Shown one piece after another: positions 29,345 to 55,966 of a DNA stretch of 64,000 nucleotides. A program made the translations under genes and the position numbers. This DNA comes from Salinispira sp. (GTDB lineage Bacteria; Spirochaetota; Spirochaetia; DSM-27196; Salinispiraceae): assembly GCA_965602015.1 (NCBI GenBank), contig OZ271918.1, positions 1,184,001 to 1,248,000 of the forward strand. The letters are read 5' to 3'. Below the pieces are notes generated by a model. The model did not search any database, was not told the DNA's origin, and saw only the letters and a program-made list of their open reading frames with translations. Position 1 is the first letter of the stretch, and each line of letters opens with the position of its first letter.

Positions 29345-29361
29345 CCGGTCTTGTAAAAAAT

Positions 29362-29434
29362 GGTGGCGTAGCTCAGTTGGTAGAGCAAACGGCTCATATC
29401 CGTTCGGTCAGGGGTTCAAGTCCCTTCGCCACTA
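29362..29434 (+). tRNA. tRNA-Met (CAT), probably elongator; CCA not encoded
   Basis: Acceptor stem GGTGGCG/CGCCACT, D arm GCTCAGTTGGTAGAGC, anticodon loop CTCATAT, T loop GGTTCAAGTCC. Confidence 0.95.
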
Positions 29435-29438
29435 TCGG

Positions 29439-29477: not shown

Positions 29478-29560
29478 ATTAAGTGATGGTATGAAAGCGG
29501 TGCCTCCCCCGAGATCCTGCCAGTCAGGGTCTATATTAAATACCGGAGGAGGACAACCAA

Positions 29561-30613
29561 ATGAGTAGTATTATTATATCCCTCGACAGCCATAAACGGT
29601 ATACCGTGGCTGCAATTGAGGACGAAAAAGGAAGGAAATCCTCACAGCGCATAGAACATTCTCACGGGTGTATTCGTGATTTTCTCCAACAATTTGAGCC
29701 GGGACAGGAAGTCGCACTTGAAACAATCGGAAGTTGGTACTGGATTGTGGATGAGATTGAGGAGGCCGGCATGAACCCCTTGCTGGTACATGCCGGTAAG
29801 TCAAAATTGATGATGGCCATGTTTAACAAAACTGACAAACTCGATGCTGAAGGTCTCAATAAACTTCAAAAAGCAGGCACACTGCCTACTGTGTGGATTC
29901 CACCAGGAGAATTGCGTGATAAACGAGAACTCTATCGAACCCGGATGCAGTTCGTTCAGGAGTTGATACGTGAAAAGAACCAAATTCATGCCGGGTTCGA
30001 GAAATATGGGTTTCGATTCAATGATGTGAGCGATCTGTTCGGAAAAGCAGGTACAGAAGCCATGAAGAAGGTAATGCCAAAACTCCCCGAGCATACCCGC
30101 ACCATGATGAAACTCAAGCTCGATAATCTCGCGTTTATTAAGCAATCTATCACCGACTGCGAACAACGAATGCATGAAGCGTTTGATGAAAATGCTGAAA
30201 TGAAGTTGGTGAAATCCATTCCCGGGATCGGATTTATTCTCAGCGCAGTCATTGTGCATGAAATTGGAGACATACATCGCTTTAAGACCGCTGAACATTT
30301 TGCATCATACTGTGGTACAACGCCGCGCGTTCACTCGAGCGGAGGTAAAACTCATTATGGTCGAACATCGAAAGCATGTAATCGATACTTGAAGTGGGCA
30401 CTTACTGAAGCAGCTAATGTAACCTGTCTTAATCAAAGAAATTGGGCGAACCGACATACGGTAAAACTCTACAAGAGAGTTCGTACTAAACGTAATCATA
30501 AGGTTGCAATAATCGCCGTGGCACGGCACTTAGCAGAAGCAATATTTTGGATATTGCAGAAAGAACAGCATTACAAAGATCCTGCATTAGCGGGTTTGTC
30601 CAGACAGGGGTAA
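29561..30613 (+). CDS. IS110-family DEDD recombinase/transposase
   Basis: SLDSHK, ALETIG and KTDKLDA (DEDD); SIPGIG and PRVHSSGGK in the C-terminal domain; SD GGAGGAGG. Confidence 0.97.
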   Translation: MSSIIISLDSHKRYTVAAIEDEKGRKSSQRIEHSHGCIRDFLQQFEPGQEVALETIGSWYWIVDEIEEAGMNPLLVHAGKSKLMMAMFNKTDKLDAEGLNKLQKAGTLPTVWIPPGELRDKRELYRTRMQFVQELIREKNQIHAGFEKYGFRFNDVSDLFGKAGTEAMKKVMPKLPEHTRTMMKLKLDNLAFIKQSITDCEQRMHEAFDENAEMKLVKSIPGIGFILSAVIVHEIGDIHRFKTAEHFASYCGTTPRVHSSGGKTHYGRTSKACNRYLKWALTEAANVTCLNQRNWANRHTVKLYKRVRTKRNHKVAIIAVARHLAEAIFWILQKEQHYKDPALAGLSRQG

Positions 30614-30766
30614 GCGCGTTTTTGGGGCTACAGCGCGAATACGAGGCTGTGCAAAGTGATTGCGACACCCCTGGAAGGACATTTTCATGCCACGTGGATG
30701 GCGGAGATATGACTCGGACAAAACCGATTTGCAGAATTTTTGTAATAGAACATTGAAAACTCTTGC
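30614..30766 (+). ncRNA. Predicted bridge/seek RNA of IS1111-type element copy 1 (boundaries approximate)
   Basis: Segments TTTTGGGG, AAAGTG, TTTCATGCCA and AGATATG match the target and donor arms; located in the 3' non-coding end, as known for the IS1111 group. Confidence 0.8.
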
Positions 30767-30872
30767 GGGGAGGCACCGCTTTCAGATATGCCCCCAAAAC
30801 AGCTGATCGAATCAACATAACTCTTTTGCCAGTAGTCTTCTATGACACGATTCCCGCTCATAGGAGATTGCC

Positions 30873-32006
30873 ATGGCGTTTCACCCCCGTTTCTGTCCGT
30901 ACTCGGACTGCTCTCAGCATCATCGCGACAGAGAATCAAGCCGGTGCTGGTTTGTCCGAAACGGTCACTATCACTGCCGCCGCCTCGGTTCTTCCCAGCG
31001 CTATCGCTGTAAGCATTGCCGTCGATACTTCTGCGAAAGCGCGTTTCACCTCGATTATCGCGCACATCATCGCCTCGATTACCGGCGCATCTTTTCTTCG
31101 ATCAACTCGGCTTCTGGCATCCGCGACATTGCCCGGGAGTTTTATGTCACCGACAAGGTCATTCTCAATCGATTGAGTCGCCTGTCCCGTCAGGCGATCG
31201 CTGCCATGGCCCAGTTATTGAGCGATCATACAATCGATGAGGATATTGCCGTTGATGGGTTTGAAAGCTTTGTGTACAGCCAATACTGGCCGAACAACTT
31301 CACCCTCGCGGTGGGTTCCGACAGCCAGGTTGTCTATGCCTGCGACTATGCGCAGATGCGGCGCAAAGGGCGGATGACCCCCGCACAAAAGCGCCGGCGC
31401 GATGAGCTCAATCGCCGGTATCCTATTGCAGGGGGACAAATTGCGCGATCTTTCCGTGATGTGATAAACACCATTCTTCCCAGGTGGAGGGCTTATTCAT
31501 CGAAGAAGCCATGCTATCTCTTGAGCGATGAAAAACTCGAATACCGCCGTGAGCTGTTCGCTCACCGGGACTGGGCGGCGTTGGAAAATGCAGGGCGGGT
31601 GATCCATCACCGAACCTCATCGAGGGTGGTCAGGACCACTGAGAACCCCCTGTTTCCGGTGAATTACCTGGATCGGGAGATACGAAAGGATCAATCCTGT
31701 CATGTCCGCCAGAGTGTCCAGTGGTCAAAATCGGTGAACAACAGCATGGAGCGGATGATGATTTACATCGCCTATCATAACCTGCTCAAGCCGTATCGGA
31801 TAAACGGACGAAACGATATCAGCCATGGTGAGGTTGCGGGGTTTGACCGAAAGCGGGTACTCACGTTGGCAAAAAGGATGTTTACACAGCGGGCCTTCGT
31901 TCATCATCTGGTGCTGGACATCAGCCAATGGAAGACCTGGCACCGGATCTGGAAGACACCGGTGAGTGCGCTGAAGATCGATCTTCCCGATTATGCGGTG
32001 GCCTGA
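30873..32006 (+). CDS. IS1-like transposase (zinc ribbon + HTH + DDE-like domain, single ORF)
   Basis: CPYSDC..RYRCKHCRRYF zinc ribbon, SGIRDIAREF HTH, IAVDGFESFV and LLSDEK acidic motifs; enclosed by inverted repeats. Family assignment is inferred. Confidence 0.8.
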   Translation: MAFHPRFCPYSDCSQHHRDRESSRCWFVRNGHYHCRRLGSSQRYRCKHCRRYFCESAFHLDYRAHHRLDYRRIFSSINSASGIRDIAREFYVTDKVILNRLSRLSRQAIAAMAQLLSDHTIDEDIAVDGFESFVYSQYWPNNFTLAVGSDSQVVYACDYAQMRRKGRMTPAQKRRRDELNRRYPIAGGQIARSFRDVINTILPRWRAYSSKKPCYLLSDEKLEYRRELFAHRDWAALENAGRVIHHRTSSRVVRTTENPLFPVNYLDREIRKDQSCHVRQSVQWSKSVNNSMERMMIYIAYHNLLKPYRINGRNDISHGEVAGFDRKRVLTLAKRMFTQRAFVHHLVLDISQWKTWHRIWKTPVSALKIDLPDYAVA

Positions 32007-32043
32007 GGAGGGGAAAATCAGCTGTTTTGGGGGCACTAAACTC

Positions 32044-46783: not shown

Positions 46784-47899
46784 ATGTCGACAATCAAATA
46801 TAACTTCGAAAAACTGATAGAGATTTTTCATTCCGTCCTGTGCCGATCAAAAGCCCTCCGGGCGGACCAATGGATTTATCACCTGATAATCAACCCCGGC
46901 GCCGGAGGATTTAATTTTGAAGGCATCCGTCAAAGCTTGGGGCGCAGCGAGCCAAAAGGCATTCGCATCCTGGATGAAACCAGCCGGGCGGCCATAGCCG
47001 GTCTGGATCCTTTATACAGTGCCCAGACTGTCGATATCCGGCTTCACCTGTCGGCATATCCCGATCACGCCGGCCTTCTGGCAAAAAGCATCGCGACGGA
47101 TTTTTATTCCGATGAGCGACGCCACATGATCATCAGTATCGGGGGGGACGGTACCCATAACGAAATTATGCAGGCCCTTCATACAGGTGTGAGCCAGTCA
47201 AAGTTGGCGCTTTGCCGGGTATTTCGCTTTCCCCTGGGCTCTGGCAACGACGGAGCCGATGCCTGGAAGCCGGAGGAAGCCTGGCAGCTGTTGATTGACG
47301 GTGCGGAACAGGGAAGGGCCGGGGCTTTGGAGATAAACAGCGCCGCTGGAGAGCAGTTTCACGCCTTTAATATTGCCAGCATCGGAGTTGACGCCCATAT
47401 CGTCAAAGTGACTAATCAGCTTAAAGACCGGCTTCCCGGTGATTTTTACAAGGTGGCCGCAGACCTCTCGGTCCCCTTCTATCCCGGTTTGTATCAGGTG
47501 GGTACCGCCCGCCTTTCCGGTGTGGATTTTGACGGTGAGCAGTTGGAGCACAGTTTCCGGCTGGGGCTGATAGCATTCGGGGTGAGCGGGATTCGAACCT
47601 ATGGTCACGGGTTGTGGATTCTCCCCGATCGGGAGAACATTTGCGCCATCGAACTGCGGAACCTTCTGACCAACATAAAAATGAAAAAGGAACTCTACCG
47701 CGCGAAACATGACCGATTGCCCTATGTTTCAATGTTCAGATCGGGAGACTTCACCTTTGAGTATGATTCTGCCATACCGATGGAACTGGACGGTGAAGTA
47801 AAAATGCTCTCGGCCGAGGATTTTCCCCTGTCCATACGGGTTATCGAGACGAATATACAGATGTACAGCGGAAAGGACCTGAGCGTCTATAAATCGTAG
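46784..47899 (+). CDS. Diacylglycerol-kinase-family lipid kinase
   Basis: INPGAG, GGDGTHNE, PLGSGND and ELDGE. Confidence 0.88.
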   Translation: MSTIKYNFEKLIEIFHSVLCRSKALRADQWIYHLIINPGAGGFNFEGIRQSLGRSEPKGIRILDETSRAAIAGLDPLYSAQTVDIRLHLSAYPDHAGLLAKSIATDFYSDERRHMIISIGGDGTHNEIMQALHTGVSQSKLALCRVFRFPLGSGNDGADAWKPEEAWQLLIDGAEQGRAGALEINSAAGEQFHAFNIASIGVDAHIVKVTNQLKDRLPGDFYKVAADLSVPFYPGLYQVGTARLSGVDFDGEQLEHSFRLGLIAFGVSGIRTYGHGLWILPDRENICAIELRNLLTNIKMKKELYRAKHDRLPYVSMFRSGDFTFEYDSAIPMELDGEVKMLSAEDFPLSIRVIETNIQMYSGKDLSVYKS

Positions 47900-48759
47900 T
47901 AGTGATGCTGCTTCACAAATCCCCTGAAGCCCGCGTCCATGACCTTTGATTCGTAGTTCATGTAATTGTCCGGATAGTGCATCAAAAAGGTCTTCGCGCG
48001 GATTTCCTGATGAAGGGTGCACAGATCGTCAAAAAACGCGTGGACTCCTCCGGGAAAAAACTGCACGTCGTGAAAGATGTGTTCGATGGGGTAGGTTTCG
48101 GTGATGTTTTCAATCATTTCCCGGTCGAATCGGGTATCGCCGGTAAACAGAATCCGCTTATCGATGATCAGCCCGGTGCTATACGCGCTGCGCTTCCAGC
48201 TCGGGGCATTGTCGGGGTAATGCATGGTGCGAAACAGCACTACGTTGAACCCCTTCCAGTCAATCTCCCAGGCGTCACGGTTCAAACTGCGCAGGCTTTT
48301 GGGACGGGTAACGTTCCAGTAATCCCGGAAATTCAGGAAGCGGTTGCCCTTTGATTCATTCCAGGCAGCTCCGCCCTTGAGGCTGTCATTCCACAGCAGC
48401 TTTTCGTATTCCTTGGTGATGACGATATTCGGTTTGCGCTTGGTGACATAGCGGCCCATGAGCAGAACCTCTTCAAGTCCGCCAATGTGGTCCGCATGCG
48501 AATGGGTAATGATGAAGTTTTCTATGTCCGTTACCGGCCTGCCGAGTTTTGACATTGCCTCGGGAGTGCGTGTTCCGCAATCGAGCATTATGTGCTGATC
48601 GCCCTTTATGAGCAGGTAATTATTCTGATAATGCTTCTTAGTGAATGCACTGCCGGTCCCCACCGGAAACAGGCTGGTTTCTCCGTTATTCGTCAGGCTG
48701 AGATCAGATGTTAGTTCGCGTATGTTCAAAAACGAATCCTTCAAAAACAAGCTGCACAA
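47887..48759 (-). CDS. MBL-fold metallo-hydrolase (start may lie slightly downstream)
   Basis: GTGSAF, LDCG, THSHADHIGG and FTGDT. Confidence 0.88.
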   Translation of the reverse strand: MCSLFLKDSFLNIRELTSDLSLTNNGETSLFPVGTGSAFTKKHYQNNYLLIKGDQHIMLDCGTRTPEAMSKLGRPVTDIENFIITHSHADHIGGLEEVLLMGRYVTKRKPNIVITKEYEKLLWNDSLKGGAAWNESKGNRFLNFRDYWNVTRPKSLRSLNRDAWEIDWKGFNVVLFRTMHYPDNAPSWKRSAYSTGLIIDKRILFTGDTRFDREMIENITETYPIEHIFHDVQFFPGGVHAFFDDLCTLHQEIRAKTFLMHYPDNYMNYESKVMDAGFRGFVKQHHYYDL

Positions 48760-49002
48760 AGATGTTTACCGGTGCGAATTGTATACCAGTATATGTTAAA
48801 TTTATTCAATTACCCAATACTTACCGTACAGTATAACCCGAAAGCAATAAAATCCAAATAAAAACGCGTGGGTGAAAATATAGAAATTCCCAGAAGTTTT
48901 TGCAAATTTTTCGTAAGTGCCCCCAAAACAGCTGATCGAATCAACATAACTCTTTTGCCAGTAGTCTTCTATGACACGATTACCAGTTCATAGGAGATTA
49001 GC

Positions 49003-50136
49003 ATGGCATTAATCCCTCGTTTCTGTCCGTACTCGGACTGTTCTCAGCATCATCGCGACAGAGAATCAAGCCGGTGCTGGTTTGTCCGAAACGGCCACTA
49101 TCACTGCCGCCGCCTCGGTTCTTCCCAGCGCTATCGCTGCAAGCATTGCCGTCGATACTTCTGCGAAAGCGCGTTCCACCTCGATTATCGCGCACATCAT
49201 CGCCTCGATTACCGGCGCATCTTCTCTTCAATCAACTCGGCCTCCGGCATTCGCGATATTGCCCGGGAGTTTTATGTCACCGACAAGGTCATTCTCAATC
49301 GGCTGAGCCGATTGTCCCGTCAGGCAATCGCTGCCATGGCCCAGTTATCGAATGATCATACAATCGATGAGGATATTGCCGTTGATGGGTTTGAAAGCTT
49401 TGTGTATAGCCAATACTGGCCGAGCAACTTCACTCTCGCGGTGGGTTCCGACAGCCAGGTTGTCTATGCGTGCGACTATGCGCAGATGCGGCGTAAAGGG
49501 CGGATGACCCCCGCACAAAAGCGCCGGCGCGATGAGCTCAATCGCCAGTATCCTATTGCAGGGGGACAAATTGCGCGATCTTTCCGGGATGTGATGAATA
49601 CCATTCTTCCCCGATGGAAGGCTTATTCATCGAAGAGGCCATGCTATCTCTTGAGCGATGAAAAACTCGAATACCGCCGTGAGCTGTGCGCTCATCGGGA
49701 CTGGGCGGCGTTGGAAAATGCAGGGCGGGTTATCCATCACCGAACCTCATCAAGGGTGGTCAGGACCACTGAGAACCCCCTGTTTCCGGTGAATTACCTG
49801 GACCGGGAGATACGAAAGGATCAATCCTGTCATGTCCGCCAGAGCGTGCAGTGGTCAAAATCGGTGAACAACAGCATGGAGCGGATGATGATTTACATCG
49901 CCTATCATAACCTGCTCAAGCCGTATCGGATAAACGGACGAAACGATATCAGCCATGGTGAGGTTGCGGGGTTTGACCGAAGGCGGGTACTCACGTTGAC
50001 AAAAAGCATGTTTACACAGCGGGCCTTCGTTCATCATCTGGTGCTGGACATCAGCCAATGGAAGACCTGGCACCGGATCTGGAAGACGCCGGTGAGTGCG
50101 CTAAAGATCGACCTACCCGATTATGCGGTGGCCTGA
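49003..50136 (+). CDS. IS1-like transposase, copy 2
   Basis: 377 aa; about 13 substitutions relative to copy 1 by eye. Confidence 0.8.
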   Translation: MALIPRFCPYSDCSQHHRDRESSRCWFVRNGHYHCRRLGSSQRYRCKHCRRYFCESAFHLDYRAHHRLDYRRIFSSINSASGIRDIAREFYVTDKVILNRLSRLSRQAIAAMAQLSNDHTIDEDIAVDGFESFVYSQYWPSNFTLAVGSDSQVVYACDYAQMRRKGRMTPAQKRRRDELNRQYPIAGGQIARSFRDVMNTILPRWKAYSSKRPCYLLSDEKLEYRRELCAHRDWAALENAGRVIHHRTSSRVVRTTENPLFPVNYLDREIRKDQSCHVRQSVQWSKSVNNSMERMMIYIAYHNLLKPYRINGRNDISHGEVAGFDRRRVLTLTKSMFTQRAFVHHLVLDISQWKTWHRIWKTPVSALKIDLPDYAVA

Positions 50137-50186
50137 GGGGCGGAAATCAGCTGTTTTGGGGGCATATCTGAAAGCGGTGCCCCCCC

Positions 50187-50339
50187 GCAAGAGTTTTCAT
50201 TGTTCTATTACAAAAATTCTGCAAATCGGTTTTGTCCGAGTCATATCTCCGCCATCCACGTGGCATGAAAATGTCCTTCCAGGGGTGTCGCAATCACTTT
50301 GCACAGCCTCGTATTCGCGCTGTAGCCCCAAAAACGCGC
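50187..50339 (-). ncRNA. Predicted bridge/seek RNA, copy 2
   Basis: All four guide-like segments are identical to copy 1. Confidence 0.8.
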
Positions 50340-51392
50340 TTACCCCTGTCTGGACAAACCCGCTAATGCAGGATCTTTGTAATGCTGTTCTTTCTGCAAT
50401 ATCCAAAATATTGCTTCTGCTAAGTGCCGTGCCACGGCGATTATTGCAACCTTATGATTACGTTTAGTACGAACTCTCTTGTAGAGTTTTACCGTATGTC
50501 GGTTCGCCCAATTTCTTTGATTAAGACAGGTTACATTAGCTGCTTCAGTAAGTGCCCACTTCAAGTATCGATTACATGCTTTCGATGTTCGACCATAATG
50601 AGTTTTACCTCCGCTCGAGTGAACGCGCGGCGTTGTACCACAGTATGATGCAAAATGTTCAGCGGTCTTAAAGCGATGTATGTCTCCAATTTCATGCACA
50701 ATGACTGCGCTGAGAATAAATCCGATCCCGGGAATGGATTTCACCAACTTCATTTCAGCATTTTCATCAAACGCTTCATGCATTCGTTGTTCGCAGTCGG
50801 TGATAGATTGCTTAATAAACGCGAGATTATCGAGCTTGAGTTTCATCATGGTGCGGGTATGCTCGGGGAGTTTTGGCATTACCTTCTTCATGGCTTCTGT
50901 ACCTGCTTTTCCGAACAGATCGCTCACATCATTGAATCGAAACCCATATTTCTCGAACCCGGCATGAATTTGGTTCTTTTCACGTATCAACTCCTGAACG
51001 AACTGCATCCGGGTTCGATAGAGTTCTCGTTTATCACGCAATTCTCCTGGTGGAATCCACACAGTAGGCAGTGTGCCTGCTTTTTGAAGTTTATTGAGAC
51101 CTTCAGCATCGAGTTTGTCAGTTTTGTTAAACATGGCCATCATCAATTTTGACTTACCGGCATGTACCAGCAAGGGGTTCATGCCGGCCTCCTCAATCTC
51201 ATCCACAATCCAGTACCAACTTCCGATCGTTTCAAGTGCGACTTCCTGTCCCGGCTCAAATTGTTGGAGAAAATCACGAATACACCCGTGAGAATGTTCT
51301 ATGCGCTGTGAGGATTTCCTTCCATTTTCGTCCTCAATTGCAGCCACGGTATACCGTTTATGGCTGTCGAGGGATATAATAGTATTACTCAT
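50340..51392 (-). CDS. IS110-family DEDD recombinase/transposase, copy 2
   Basis: 350 aa; 3 N-terminal substitutions relative to copy 1 by eye. Confidence 0.97.
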   Translation of the reverse strand: MSNTIISLDSHKRYTVAAIEDENGRKSSQRIEHSHGCIRDFLQQFEPGQEVALETIGSWYWIVDEIEEAGMNPLLVHAGKSKLMMAMFNKTDKLDAEGLNKLQKAGTLPTVWIPPGELRDKRELYRTRMQFVQELIREKNQIHAGFEKYGFRFNDVSDLFGKAGTEAMKKVMPKLPEHTRTMMKLKLDNLAFIKQSITDCEQRMHEAFDENAEMKLVKSIPGIGFILSAVIVHEIGDIHRFKTAEHFASYCGTTPRVHSSGGKTHYGRTSKACNRYLKWALTEAANVTCLNQRNWANRHTVKLYKRVRTKRNHKVAIIAVARHLAEAIFWILQKEQHYKDPALAGLSRQG

Positions 51393-51524
51393 TTGGTTGT
51401 CCTCCTCCGGTATTTAATATAGACCCTGACTGGCAGGATCTCGGGGGAGGCACCGCTTTCATACCATCACTTTCTGATTTCTTCCCCGTTGGCGGCGCTC
51501 TTCAACCCGTGATAGCATCGCTTT

Positions 51525-51902
51525 ATGTCTACTAAATCCGAAAGCGGCGCCGAGGCCCCGCAGATCGAAGAATTCATTCAAAAGCGCGAGCGGCTCAATG
51601 ATATTGTGTTGGAGCAGGGGACTCTGGTCACCAAACGCTTTATCAATCTGGACGGTCAGGGATACAAGGCCGGTGCGCTTGATGAGAAAACAAAGGAACT
51701 CATGGGCCTGGTTGCCTCATTGGTTTTGCGATGCAACGATTGCATCTTGTATCACATTCTGCAGGCTAAAAAATGCGGAGTGACCCGGGAAGAGTTTACC
51801 GAGGCTTGTGATATCGCCCTCATCGTCGGGGGTTCCATCGTGATTCCTCATCTGAGGGAGGCCTATGGTCATTGGGAGTCGCTGGAGAGCGATGACGCAT
51901 AG
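51525..51902 (+). CDS. Carboxymuconolactone decarboxylase/AhpD-like protein
   Basis: GALDEKTKELMGLVASLVLRCNDCILYH. Confidence 0.88.
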   Translation: MSTKSESGAEAPQIEEFIQKRERLNDIVLEQGTLVTKRFINLDGQGYKAGALDEKTKELMGLVASLVLRCNDCILYHILQAKKCGVTREEFTEACDIALIVGGSIVIPHLREAYGHWESLESDDA

Positions 51903-52126
51903 GGTTCCAGGCGGATCTTTCTTACCAAGGGCTCGAGGCCGTTAGCTTTTATCTCCAAGAGGTTTTCCAGGAGAAAGCCAATGCGCCCGGCGGGAAAGCC
52001 CTTCTGCTTAAACCAAAGTATATAGGCTTCGGGCAGGTCGACAAGGTATCTGCCGGCGTACTTTCCAAAGGGCATTTTCATCGTGGCCAGATCTATGAGG
52101 ATTTTTCTCTCATCCGTATCATTCAT
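51869..52126 (-). CDS. DUF3820 family protein
   Basis: MPFGKYAGRYLVDLPEAYILWF..GFP..EIKANGLE. Confidence 0.85.
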   Translation of the reverse strand: MNDTDERKILIDLATMKMPFGKYAGRYLVDLPEAYILWFKQKGFPAGRIGFLLENLLEIKANGLEPLVRKIRLEPYASSLSSDSQ

Positions 52127-52155
52127 GAGGTACAATAGTAGCACAGGAGCGCAAC

Positions 52156-53418
52156 TTGGCAATAACTCGCGATCTTCAGTTCTATAAGTTCAGCATGTAC
52201 GGCTTTCTGAAGAATCTTCGTTTCTTCGATCCCTTTCTCCTATTATTTTTTCTCGAGAAAGGGATGAGCTATAGCCAGATCGGTATGCTCTACGCTATCC
52301 GACACGCTGGCATTCAGGTCCTGGAAATTCCCAGCGGGGTCGTAGCGGATTTGCTGGGACGCCGTAGGGCCATGGTTGGAAGTTTTCTGTCCTATATCAT
52401 CAGCTTTGTGCTCTACTTTTTTGGAGACGGGTTTTGGTTTTTGGCATTGGCGACGGTTTTGTTCGCGGCCGGTGAAGCCTTTCGCTCGGGAACACACAAG
52501 GCCATGATACTCGAGTACCTGCAAATCAACGGCTGGGAAGATCAGAAAAGCGAGTATTACGGACATACCCGAAGCTGGTCCCAAATGGGAAGCGCTTTGT
52601 CTTCGCTGATTGCCGGAGCTCTGGTGTTTTGGAGGGGAAGCTATGCTCCGGTTTTTCTGTTCACCCTCATACCCTATGTGCTGGAATTAGGCCTGATGAT
52701 GTCTTACCCCCGCGCCTTGGACGGAGCTCGGACTAACGAGAGGCAAAAACACGGTGTCGGTCTCAGGTCCCTTTTCGACGGCATGAAGGCAATTGCCGCC
52801 GATATTCGAACGGTGGTCCTTCAGCCCGGTGGAGCGAGGATTATGGGAAATCTTGCCCTGCACAGCGCTGTATATAAATCTTTTAAGGACTACCTACAGC
52901 CCGTCCTCCAGAATTTAGCCCTGGTACTGCCGGTGTTTTTGAGCCTCAATGAAACGAGGAGAATTTCCCTACTCAGCGCTGGAATTTATTTTGTTTTGTA
53001 CATTTTTACATCTATCTCATCCCGTCACGCAGGTGCTTTCATCGAGCGTCTCGGCGGGGAAAAGAAAAGCCTCAACATTATTATGCTGGCCGGTTGCCTG
53101 CTGGCCCTGCTCTCCGGAGGGTTTTTGGGCTTATCCTTGGCCCCGGCAGCGGTGACAGTGTTGATTCTCATTATGATTCTCGAGAATATCCGCAAACCCG
53201 CAGTTGTTGGCTTTACATCCTCCCTTGGAGCCGATGAAGGCATGGCCACACTGTTGTCAGGGGTAGGGCAGCTCGAATCGCTGTTCGCCGCGCTTTTGGG
53301 CCTTATCCTCGGTTTTGCTGCTGATCTCCTGGGACTTGGGGGAGGTCTCATGCTCACCGGCGGACTCGTGCTACTTGCGGCAGGTTTCCTGATAATCCCC
53401 TGGAACTTCGGGGATTAA
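52156..53418 (+). CDS. MFS transporter
   Basis: EIPSGVVADLLGRR motif A, many TM helices; TTG start after SD AGGAG. Confidence 0.9.
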   Translation: MAITRDLQFYKFSMYGFLKNLRFFDPFLLLFFLEKGMSYSQIGMLYAIRHAGIQVLEIPSGVVADLLGRRRAMVGSFLSYIISFVLYFFGDGFWFLALATVLFAAGEAFRSGTHKAMILEYLQINGWEDQKSEYYGHTRSWSQMGSALSSLIAGALVFWRGSYAPVFLFTLIPYVLELGLMMSYPRALDGARTNERQKHGVGLRSLFDGMKAIAADIRTVVLQPGGARIMGNLALHSAVYKSFKDYLQPVLQNLALVLPVFLSLNETRRISLLSAGIYFVLYIFTSISSRHAGAFIERLGGEKKSLNIIMLAGCLLALLSGGFLGLSLAPAAVTVLILIMILENIRKPAVVGFTSSLGADEGMATLLSGVGQLESLFAALLGLILGFAADLLGLGGGLMLTGGLVLLAAGFLIIPWNFGD

Positions 53419-55796: not shown

Positions 55797-55836
55797 GGAC
55801 TCAGGCTGTGCAATACCGTCCGGTGTGCCGGGCGTC

Positions 55837-55910
55837 AGTCTTAGAAGGGCGGTAGTCTTAGAAGGGCGGTAGTCTTAGAGAGGTGGTAGTCTTAGAGAGG
55901 TGGTAGTCTT
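55837..55910. repeat. 17-bp tandem repeat, about 4.3 units
   Basis: AGTCTTAGAAGGGCGGT x2, AGTCTTAGAGAGGTGGT x2, then AGTCTT. Confidence 0.95.
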
Positions 55911-55966
55911 GGAGGCGAAATAAGAAGCTGCCAGGCATAGTAAGCGAAATGTAAAGCTCAGAAATA

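Follow-up and report, generated by a model that had tools for sequence, protein, structure and literature searches.

Homing of IS1111-group elements on transposon ends or on MITEs is already known from IS4321/IS5075 and from the Coxiella IS1111 in QMITE2, and the locus analyzed here provides one more natural case. IS4321 splits the Tn21 repeat internally. IS4321/IS5075 and the present element are alike in that they are of the IS1111 type, target the conserved end of a different transposon site-specifically, and carry short extensions past their sub-terminal repeats. In the present case, by contrast, the host is a 1.25-kb unclassified IS together with its MITEs in a genome of the spirochaete class, the core is formed by the first 2 bases of a 19-bp repeat that is left whole, and the predicted left guide reads outside the repeat. 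According to the accessible part of a study on Coxiella (PMC5896051), 20 of 21 IS1111 copies occupy one position in the multicopy QMITE2, which resembles the situation here in that a single position within a multicopy MITE accounts for most copies. The Coxiella target described in that part is, however, a REP-like palindrome located 10-20 bp inside the MITE, whereas the target here is the outer tip common to the MITEs and the autonomous IS. The available portions of two reports on the seekRNA, or IS1111 bridge RNA, of ISEc11, ISKpn4, and ISPa11 (PMC11187229, PMC11208160) describe a guide region downstream of the gene, a complement of the top strand placed before the bottom-strand match, insertion in one orientation, and natural reprogramming among relatives, all of which have predicted counterparts in the present element; the same portions name REP sequences as the targets of IS621 and ISPa11. 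Compared with ISEc11, ISKpn4, and ISPa11 as presented there, the element studied here has a different target, a TG core, 18-bp instead of the usual 11-13-bp sub-terminal repeats, and recombinase relatives that are 50-60% identical. Particular to this locus are landing at the tip with the repeat kept whole, a left guide that would read outside it, a host family that is left unclassified, and an indication from a second family that the guides track their targets. A literature search, with subscription journals, ISfinder, and supplements lying beyond its scope, returned no paper on this spirochaete IS1111/host pair.

The window, i.e., the whole 64,000-nucleotide stretch of DNA that was analyzed, contains two copies of the IS1111-group element. 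Copy 1 (29486-30788, plus strand) abuts the left repeat of host copy A and follows a tRNA gene (29361-29436) at a distance of 50 bp, and copy 2 (50165-51467, minus strand) is 1303 bp long, starts with ATGGTA, and ends with CAGATA. The gene of copy 2 (50340..51392, minus strand) encodes an IS110-family DEDD recombinase of 350 aa and is flanked by 175 bp of non-coding sequence downstream and 75 bp upstream. The recombinase matches PF01548 (40.7 bits) and PF02371 (93.8 bits), scores 227 bits against NF033542 (cut-off 140), and has residues D9, E54, D92, D95, and S260, which are invariant or nearly so across 25 homologues. The 18-bp sub-terminal inverted repeats of copy 2 are located at 51444..51461 (minus strand, 6 nt inward of the left end) and at 50169..50186 (minus strand, 4 nt inward of the right end) and agree at 17/18 positions, leaving asymmetric extensions to the core of 6 nt on the left and 4 nt on the right, lengths that shift with where the core is counted. 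Judged by its domains, putative catalytic residues, and layout, the element belongs to the IS1111 group of the IS110 family.

The host IS is represented in the window by copy A (30789-32035, plus strand) and copy B (48918-50164, plus strand), each of 1247 bp. Copy B has 19-bp terminal repeats at 48918-48936 and 50146-50164 and a transposase gene (49003..50136, plus strand) encoding 377 aa with conserved D128, D219, and D267. The host repeat, TGCCCC(C/G)AAAACAGCTGAT, is 19 bp long and occurs 127 times in the genome; 24 of these ends derive from 12 full copies, 60 from 30 MITEs of approximately 143 bp, and 8 from four mini-palindromes, and 35 are solo. The transposase matched no Pfam family, the DDE families included, and its score against the IS1 model (35 bits) is below the cut-off of 100, the ISL3 cut-off being far from reached as well. 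Among its relatives, 93/110 match the IS1 model weakly (best E 1.4e-11), the nearest Atlas clusters consist of unnamed Spirochaetota proteins, and searching by sequence found no relative with a solved structure. Relatives are present in 65/301 genomes of the class, many of them with repeats of about 19-22 bp beginning TA-N-TG. Members of the IS1 family generate a target duplication of 8-9 bp. Examination of 46 two-ended host elements under six end placements revealed no consistent target duplication of 2-6 bp, and no longer duplication is visible in the flanks of host-family elements in this genome. The IS1 family was rejected for the host, which scores below the model cut-off and shows no target duplication; the host IS is left unclassified, and weak scores together with the conserved acidic residues suggest at most an "IS1/IS6-like DDE" character.

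At seven sites in the genome, the two in the window among them, the element lies at the same TG of the host repeat, and these are very probably separate RNA-guided insertions, in which a predicted bridge RNA would read 4 bases outside and 9 bases inside the repeat. On the minus strand, the junctions of copy 2 read GAAAG-TG-ATGGTA...CAGATA-TG-CCCCCAAAACAGCTGATTTCC, exactly as given in the initial annotation. The core TG is at 51468..51469 (minus strand) at the left junction and at 50163..50164 (minus strand) at the right junction, the latter being the first 2 bases of the host right repeat, and the left target AAAG (51470..51473, minus strand) lies outside the host repeat. The position and polarity of copy 2 are those of copy 1, at the same base of the right repeat of host B as against the left repeat of host A. 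The annotation had spoken of a hit at the same nucleotide of the opposite inverted repeat; the position stands, but the element is located beside the whole 19-bp repeat and not inside it. As TG is present at both junctions, the repeat remains whole after insertion and the change is confined to the bases flanking it, which become GATA.

Ten IS1111 copies are present in the genome, all with the core TG at both junctions and with a target duplication no longer than the core. Seven are located at host-repeat tips (three IS ends, three MITE ends, and one solo end), so that the two hits in the window belong to a family-wide habit. Of the other three, one abuts a 12-bp partial repeat that retains exactly the guided bases (332675), one abuts a non-repeat TGCCCC site (1706985), and the third is the additional copy within a tandem duplication (3400972). 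Given the TG core alone, a host-repeat tip would be hit by chance with p = 2.8e-4 per site, and 7/9 independent sites were observed there. The left flanks of all ten copies end in AG, and AG is found outside 7/7 occupied repeat ends versus 69/120 free ends (p = 0.024). A clear preference for full IS ends over MITE ends is not apparent (3/24 vs 4/103 occupied, p = 0.12). Free AG-TG-CCCC-x-AAAA sites number 65 in the genome, and all are host-repeat ends. The putative target is every AG-TG-CCCC-x-AAAA end of the 127-end IS/MITE family and is not special to host A or B. The tandem duplication (C1:3399670-3402532) comprises the IS1111 element and approximately 255 bp of its left flank and is joined at the right end of the element to a chromosomal TG, and the copy at C1:1706985-1709278 is disrupted by a multicopy IS of 1311 bp, which also removed its 5' part. 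Two MITEs (2613098, 1300104) have that multicopy IS within them or next to them, and the disrupted copy is followed, at 1709857-1710216, by part of a further IS110-type gene.

Regarding the guide RNA, the sequence downstream of the recombinase gene reads AGCGCG-TTTTTGGGGC-T-stem-AAAGTG-ATTGCGAC, followed by TTTCATGCCA and AGATATG. The predicted right target guide, UUUUUGGGGC (50325..50334, minus strand), would pair with G-CCCC(C/G)AAAA of the host repeat at 8/9 positions plus the core. The predicted left target guide, AAAGUG (50295..50300, minus strand), was positioned from homologous guide pairs. The donor guides were assigned by inspection alone: the predicted right one, UUUCAUGCCA (50261..50270, minus strand), matches the left end of the element at 9/10 positions with one G-T wobble, and the predicted left one, AGAUAUG (50242..50248, minus strand), matches the right end AGATA plus the core and varies along with the right end in homologue L016. 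The order of the guides, with the top-strand complement first, and their 3' location agree with IS1111 in PMC11187229. When folded in isolation, the target loop did not adopt the expected hairpin at minimum energy, and the non-coding end as a whole was no stabler than its shuffles (z = -1.04).

The guide assignment was examined in 168 homologous loci; the loop was parsed in 159, both ends and flanks were available in 80, and 65 distinct guide pairs were obtained with a looser parser, a strict parser having supplied only 7. The right-guide register was taken as the best of up to four anchors, in the same way for the shuffles. Left guides matched their own flanks at a mean of 3.57/4 (1.35 for shuffled pairings) and right guides at a mean of 3.49/4 (1.57 for shuffled pairings); 0/2000 shuffles reached the left or the right score, a count that is not a probability since the homologues are related. 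The right guide of the present element matches the host repeat at 8/9, the mismatch falling on the C/G polymorphic base, and the other 65 guides reach at most 5/9. This 8/9 match is found at 8/10 right junctions, copy 1706985 having 6/9 and junction 3400972 having 4/9. On the left, AAAG is the commonest flank of full host copies. The flank AAAGTG had been claimed to match the left guide 6/6, which holds at copy 2 but fails as a rule (1/10 copies): copy 2 is the only site with 4/4 non-core bases, and the other nine copies match at 2-3 of 4, with three sites at 2/4. Beyond AG, the left guide is weakly obeyed, and AG-TG-CCCC is the strict part over the ten natural sites. Two observations concern the homologues themselves. 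Guides with C-T, not C-A-T, before the stem, i.e., those that would not pair to the core T, have a longer right-target match (6.0/8, n = 11, vs 4.8, n = 51), this register being found in L078, L079, L137, L183, L184, L188, L193, and the present element. Between L016 and L020, two homologues of a single genome (G202), a one-base difference in the right guide is mirrored in the target, an instance of natural reprogramming.

By analogy with the IS110/IS1111 pathway, the element would circularize to give the joint CAGATA-TG-ATGGTA, and the RNA from its 3' non-coding end would bind the DEDD recombinase. Within the target loop, UUUUUGGGG-C would be paired to the repeat's top strand and AAAG-UG to the bottom strand of the flanking DNA, and strand exchange at TG would lead to insertion in one orientation, with the right end towards the host. 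As both host and MITE ends present the same site, the right-repeat hit is the expected mirror of the left-repeat hit. Neither a circle joint nor an empty-site joint was found in the contigs of four runs of one sample, a type of data that drops rare forms.

The best surviving alternative is that the short motif AG-TG-CCCC, or protein contacts, choose the site, with host repeats supplying most of the motifs and the longer guide match being incidental. Repeat ends account for 66/109 of the free AGTGCCCC sites, one copy occupies a AGTGCCCC site outside any repeat, and occupancy with and without the distal AAAA (8/73 vs 1/45 sites, p = 0.079) does not separate the two models. On the other hand, the guide also spells the distal AAAA (8/9, against 5/9 for the best of 65 others), the C-T register homologues match over a longer stretch, and copy 332675 lies at a partial repeat with exactly the guided bases. 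Selection by the short motif is accordingly regarded as unlikely, and targeting by the longer guide is preferred.

Concerning the independence of the two insertions, the initial annotation argued for two separate, orientation-specific events and against duplication of one nested unit, and both points are borne out by identical twins elsewhere in the genome, by different host copies, ends, and sub-lineages, and by gene order in relatives. Pairwise alignment of nine of the ten genomic copies, the tenth being left out as it is interrupted by another IS, revealed that copies 1 and 2, which differ at 6 bases, are not each other's nearest: copy 2 is identical to IS_646233 at a solo repeat and copy 1 to IS_236971 at a MITE (0 differences each). 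Hosts A and B differ at 60 columns and have different nearest relatives. The reported divergence is likewise correct, with the recombinases differing at 3/350 residues (6/1327 nt) and the host transposases at 13/377 residues (51/1134 nt), and the proposed later spread of IS1111 agrees with mean pairwise differences of 9.8/1303 for nine of the ten IS1111 copies versus 43.9/1248 for 12 host copies; these differences, and likewise the junctions at host B, are in line with an IS1111 element younger than its host. Only one further IS1111 copy abuts a full host's left repeat; it and copy 1 differ at 14 bases and their hosts at 36, which indicates that no nested IS1111+host unit was copied.

Misassembly induced by the repeat, joining an IS1111 copy to the wrong flanks and thereby creating an apparent right-repeat insertion, is very improbable. 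Among the contigs listed, none runs through the 1.3-kb element or crosses its right junction to reach sequence specific to the host, and the four runs consist of short contigs of one sample, which is probably the source of the assembly, and hence are not independent of it. The genome, by contrast, is a single contig, the variants of copy 2 are common to its distant twin and not to copy 1, and the same type of junction recurs at seven loci. A contig covering the left junction (51444-52500) agrees with 0 differences, and the depth of the element is 8.7-9.0x single copy in runs X1 and X2, which fits 9-10 copies. Furthermore, the genes on either side of site 2 are adjacent in the same order, about 500 bp apart, in the relative G001; the gene right of site 2 is located elsewhere in G002, so that synteny at site 2 rests on G001 (83% complete). 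An equally slight chance is given to a single insertion followed either by duplication of a nested unit or by inversion of the 19-kb segment between the inverted IS1111 copies. The two copies are indeed inverted and 99.5% identical, and IS110 loci are known to duplicate or invert, as the available portion of bioRxiv 10.64898/2026.08.14.744561 indicates. Against this, the two copies occupy different host ends, their hosts differ at 60 columns, and they are not mutual nearest relatives. Relative to the left flank, the segment between the sites is oriented in the same way in G002, both sites retain their neighbors in relatives (the tRNA and nrdR genes flanking site 1 are neighbors in G003 and G006), and inversion would still require two prior IS1111 copies. 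That the host IS and MITEs instead landed beside resident IS1111 right ends is a formal possibility and close to nil in probability, being contradicted by the junctions: host IS ends have AG outside in 24/24 cases with IS1111 removed and TA in none, MITE and solo ends are occupied alike, and host B is not followed on its far side by the displaced core TG, which indicates that the host did not insert beside a resident IS1111.

With separate insertions as the preferred reading, a second genome (G123), from another family, was compared. Its IS1111 element is the nearest relative with known context (59% identical) and forms one clade with the present element (support 1.0 among 27 sequences). The guides read from it are TTTCGGAA-C and TTAG, and a host relative (44% identical) has a repeat that is matched 84 times in that genome. 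Reading of 30 of these repeat ends revealed TAG outside 23, CAG outside 4, and TAC outside 2, and one occupied end, at which a 155-bp right-end IS1111 fragment lies at the TG tip of a MITE. The G123 right guide matches the G123 repeats at 6/8, the other guides in the set reaching at most 5, and it also matches the repeat of the present genome at 5-6/8, as the repeats are related. G123 lacks the precise site that its guide predicts, its repeats differing from that site by at least 1 base. The sole full G123 copy has TAG on its left and is without a host repeat on its right, and may represent a one-sided event such as the accessible part of bioRxiv 10.64898/2026.08.31.748434 describes. No further copies of the G123 element were found in 7 genomes of its family. 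A host-family transposase was adjacent to the IS1111 homologue at 0/171 loci (flanks of up to 1.5 kb) and at 0/3 more, so that, with 0/174 homologous loci, the present genome and the one fragment in G123 are the sole cases observed in which this host family is targeted. Scanning genome and metagenome contigs with a single protein yielded no relatives, and the scans were then redone with alignment A1. A 13-base right-end pattern searched in 401 genomes gave mostly chance matches, and 2 of the 50 loci read carried the RNA motif, in both cases away from any host repeat; a motif search in five relatives and the search for the junction pattern in viral contigs returned nothing.

It is conceivable, although we consider it somewhat less probable than the opposite, that an IS1111 lineage has specialized on an undescribed, duplication-free IS family of Spirochaetia. 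The right guide would track the repeat and the left guide the flank preference of the transposase, both shifting jointly (AAAG/GGGG here, TTAG/GGAA in G123), with the repeat left whole and the host undisabled. Co-evolution of guide and host would draw on two genomes and one fragment. If the host stays mobile and the guides track flank preference across families, the system would offer a testable example in which a rider spares its host. It also points to an abundant, unclassified spirochaete IS/MITE family without target duplication. The locus further provides a data point on the targeting rules of bridge RNAs, with a strict AG-TG-CCCC, a long right guide mismatched at a polymorphic base, and a loose left guide.

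Several features of the host ends and of the neighborhood of the two sites were also recorded. Outside the 24 ends of full host copies, with IS1111 removed, A is found at -2 in 24/24, G at -1 in 24/24, and A at -3 in 19/24, and host-family ends lie in a loosely palindromic AG|CT or AC|GT context. Related MITEs are alike in their five outer bases (0.91 vs 0.36; 0/5000 permutations), also when the largest group is reduced to one copy (0.86 vs 0.33), whereas the outer bases of full host copies are not alike among relatives (rho -0.04). The host end may reach 2-5 bases beyond the 19-bp repeat, in which case the insertion would interrupt it. At one full host copy, bases -6 to -4 form a stop codon that is conserved in G001. 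No recurring flank pairs that would represent host empty sites were found within the genome, and one G001 site is 4 bp shorter and too diverged to read. Pairs of closely related MITEs at unrelated loci with five outer bases alike and a sharp drop at the sixth include C1:210878/301454, 3402533/3436323, and 2370998/2558585; longer true ends, subfamily-specific target choice, and carried flank are candidate causes of the likeness. In G002, the counterpart of site 1 next to the tRNA gene is occupied by approximately 2.2 kb (G002:C1:1777198-1779457) that, judged by eye, resemble a group II intron carrying a putative reverse transcriptase gene. A short tandem array with a period of 17 bp is located at window positions 55830-55914. 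Host copy B adjoins a gene of the metallo-beta-lactamase fold (window 47887-48759) that scores above the PF23023 (Apyc1-like) cut-off and has orthologues in many relatives.
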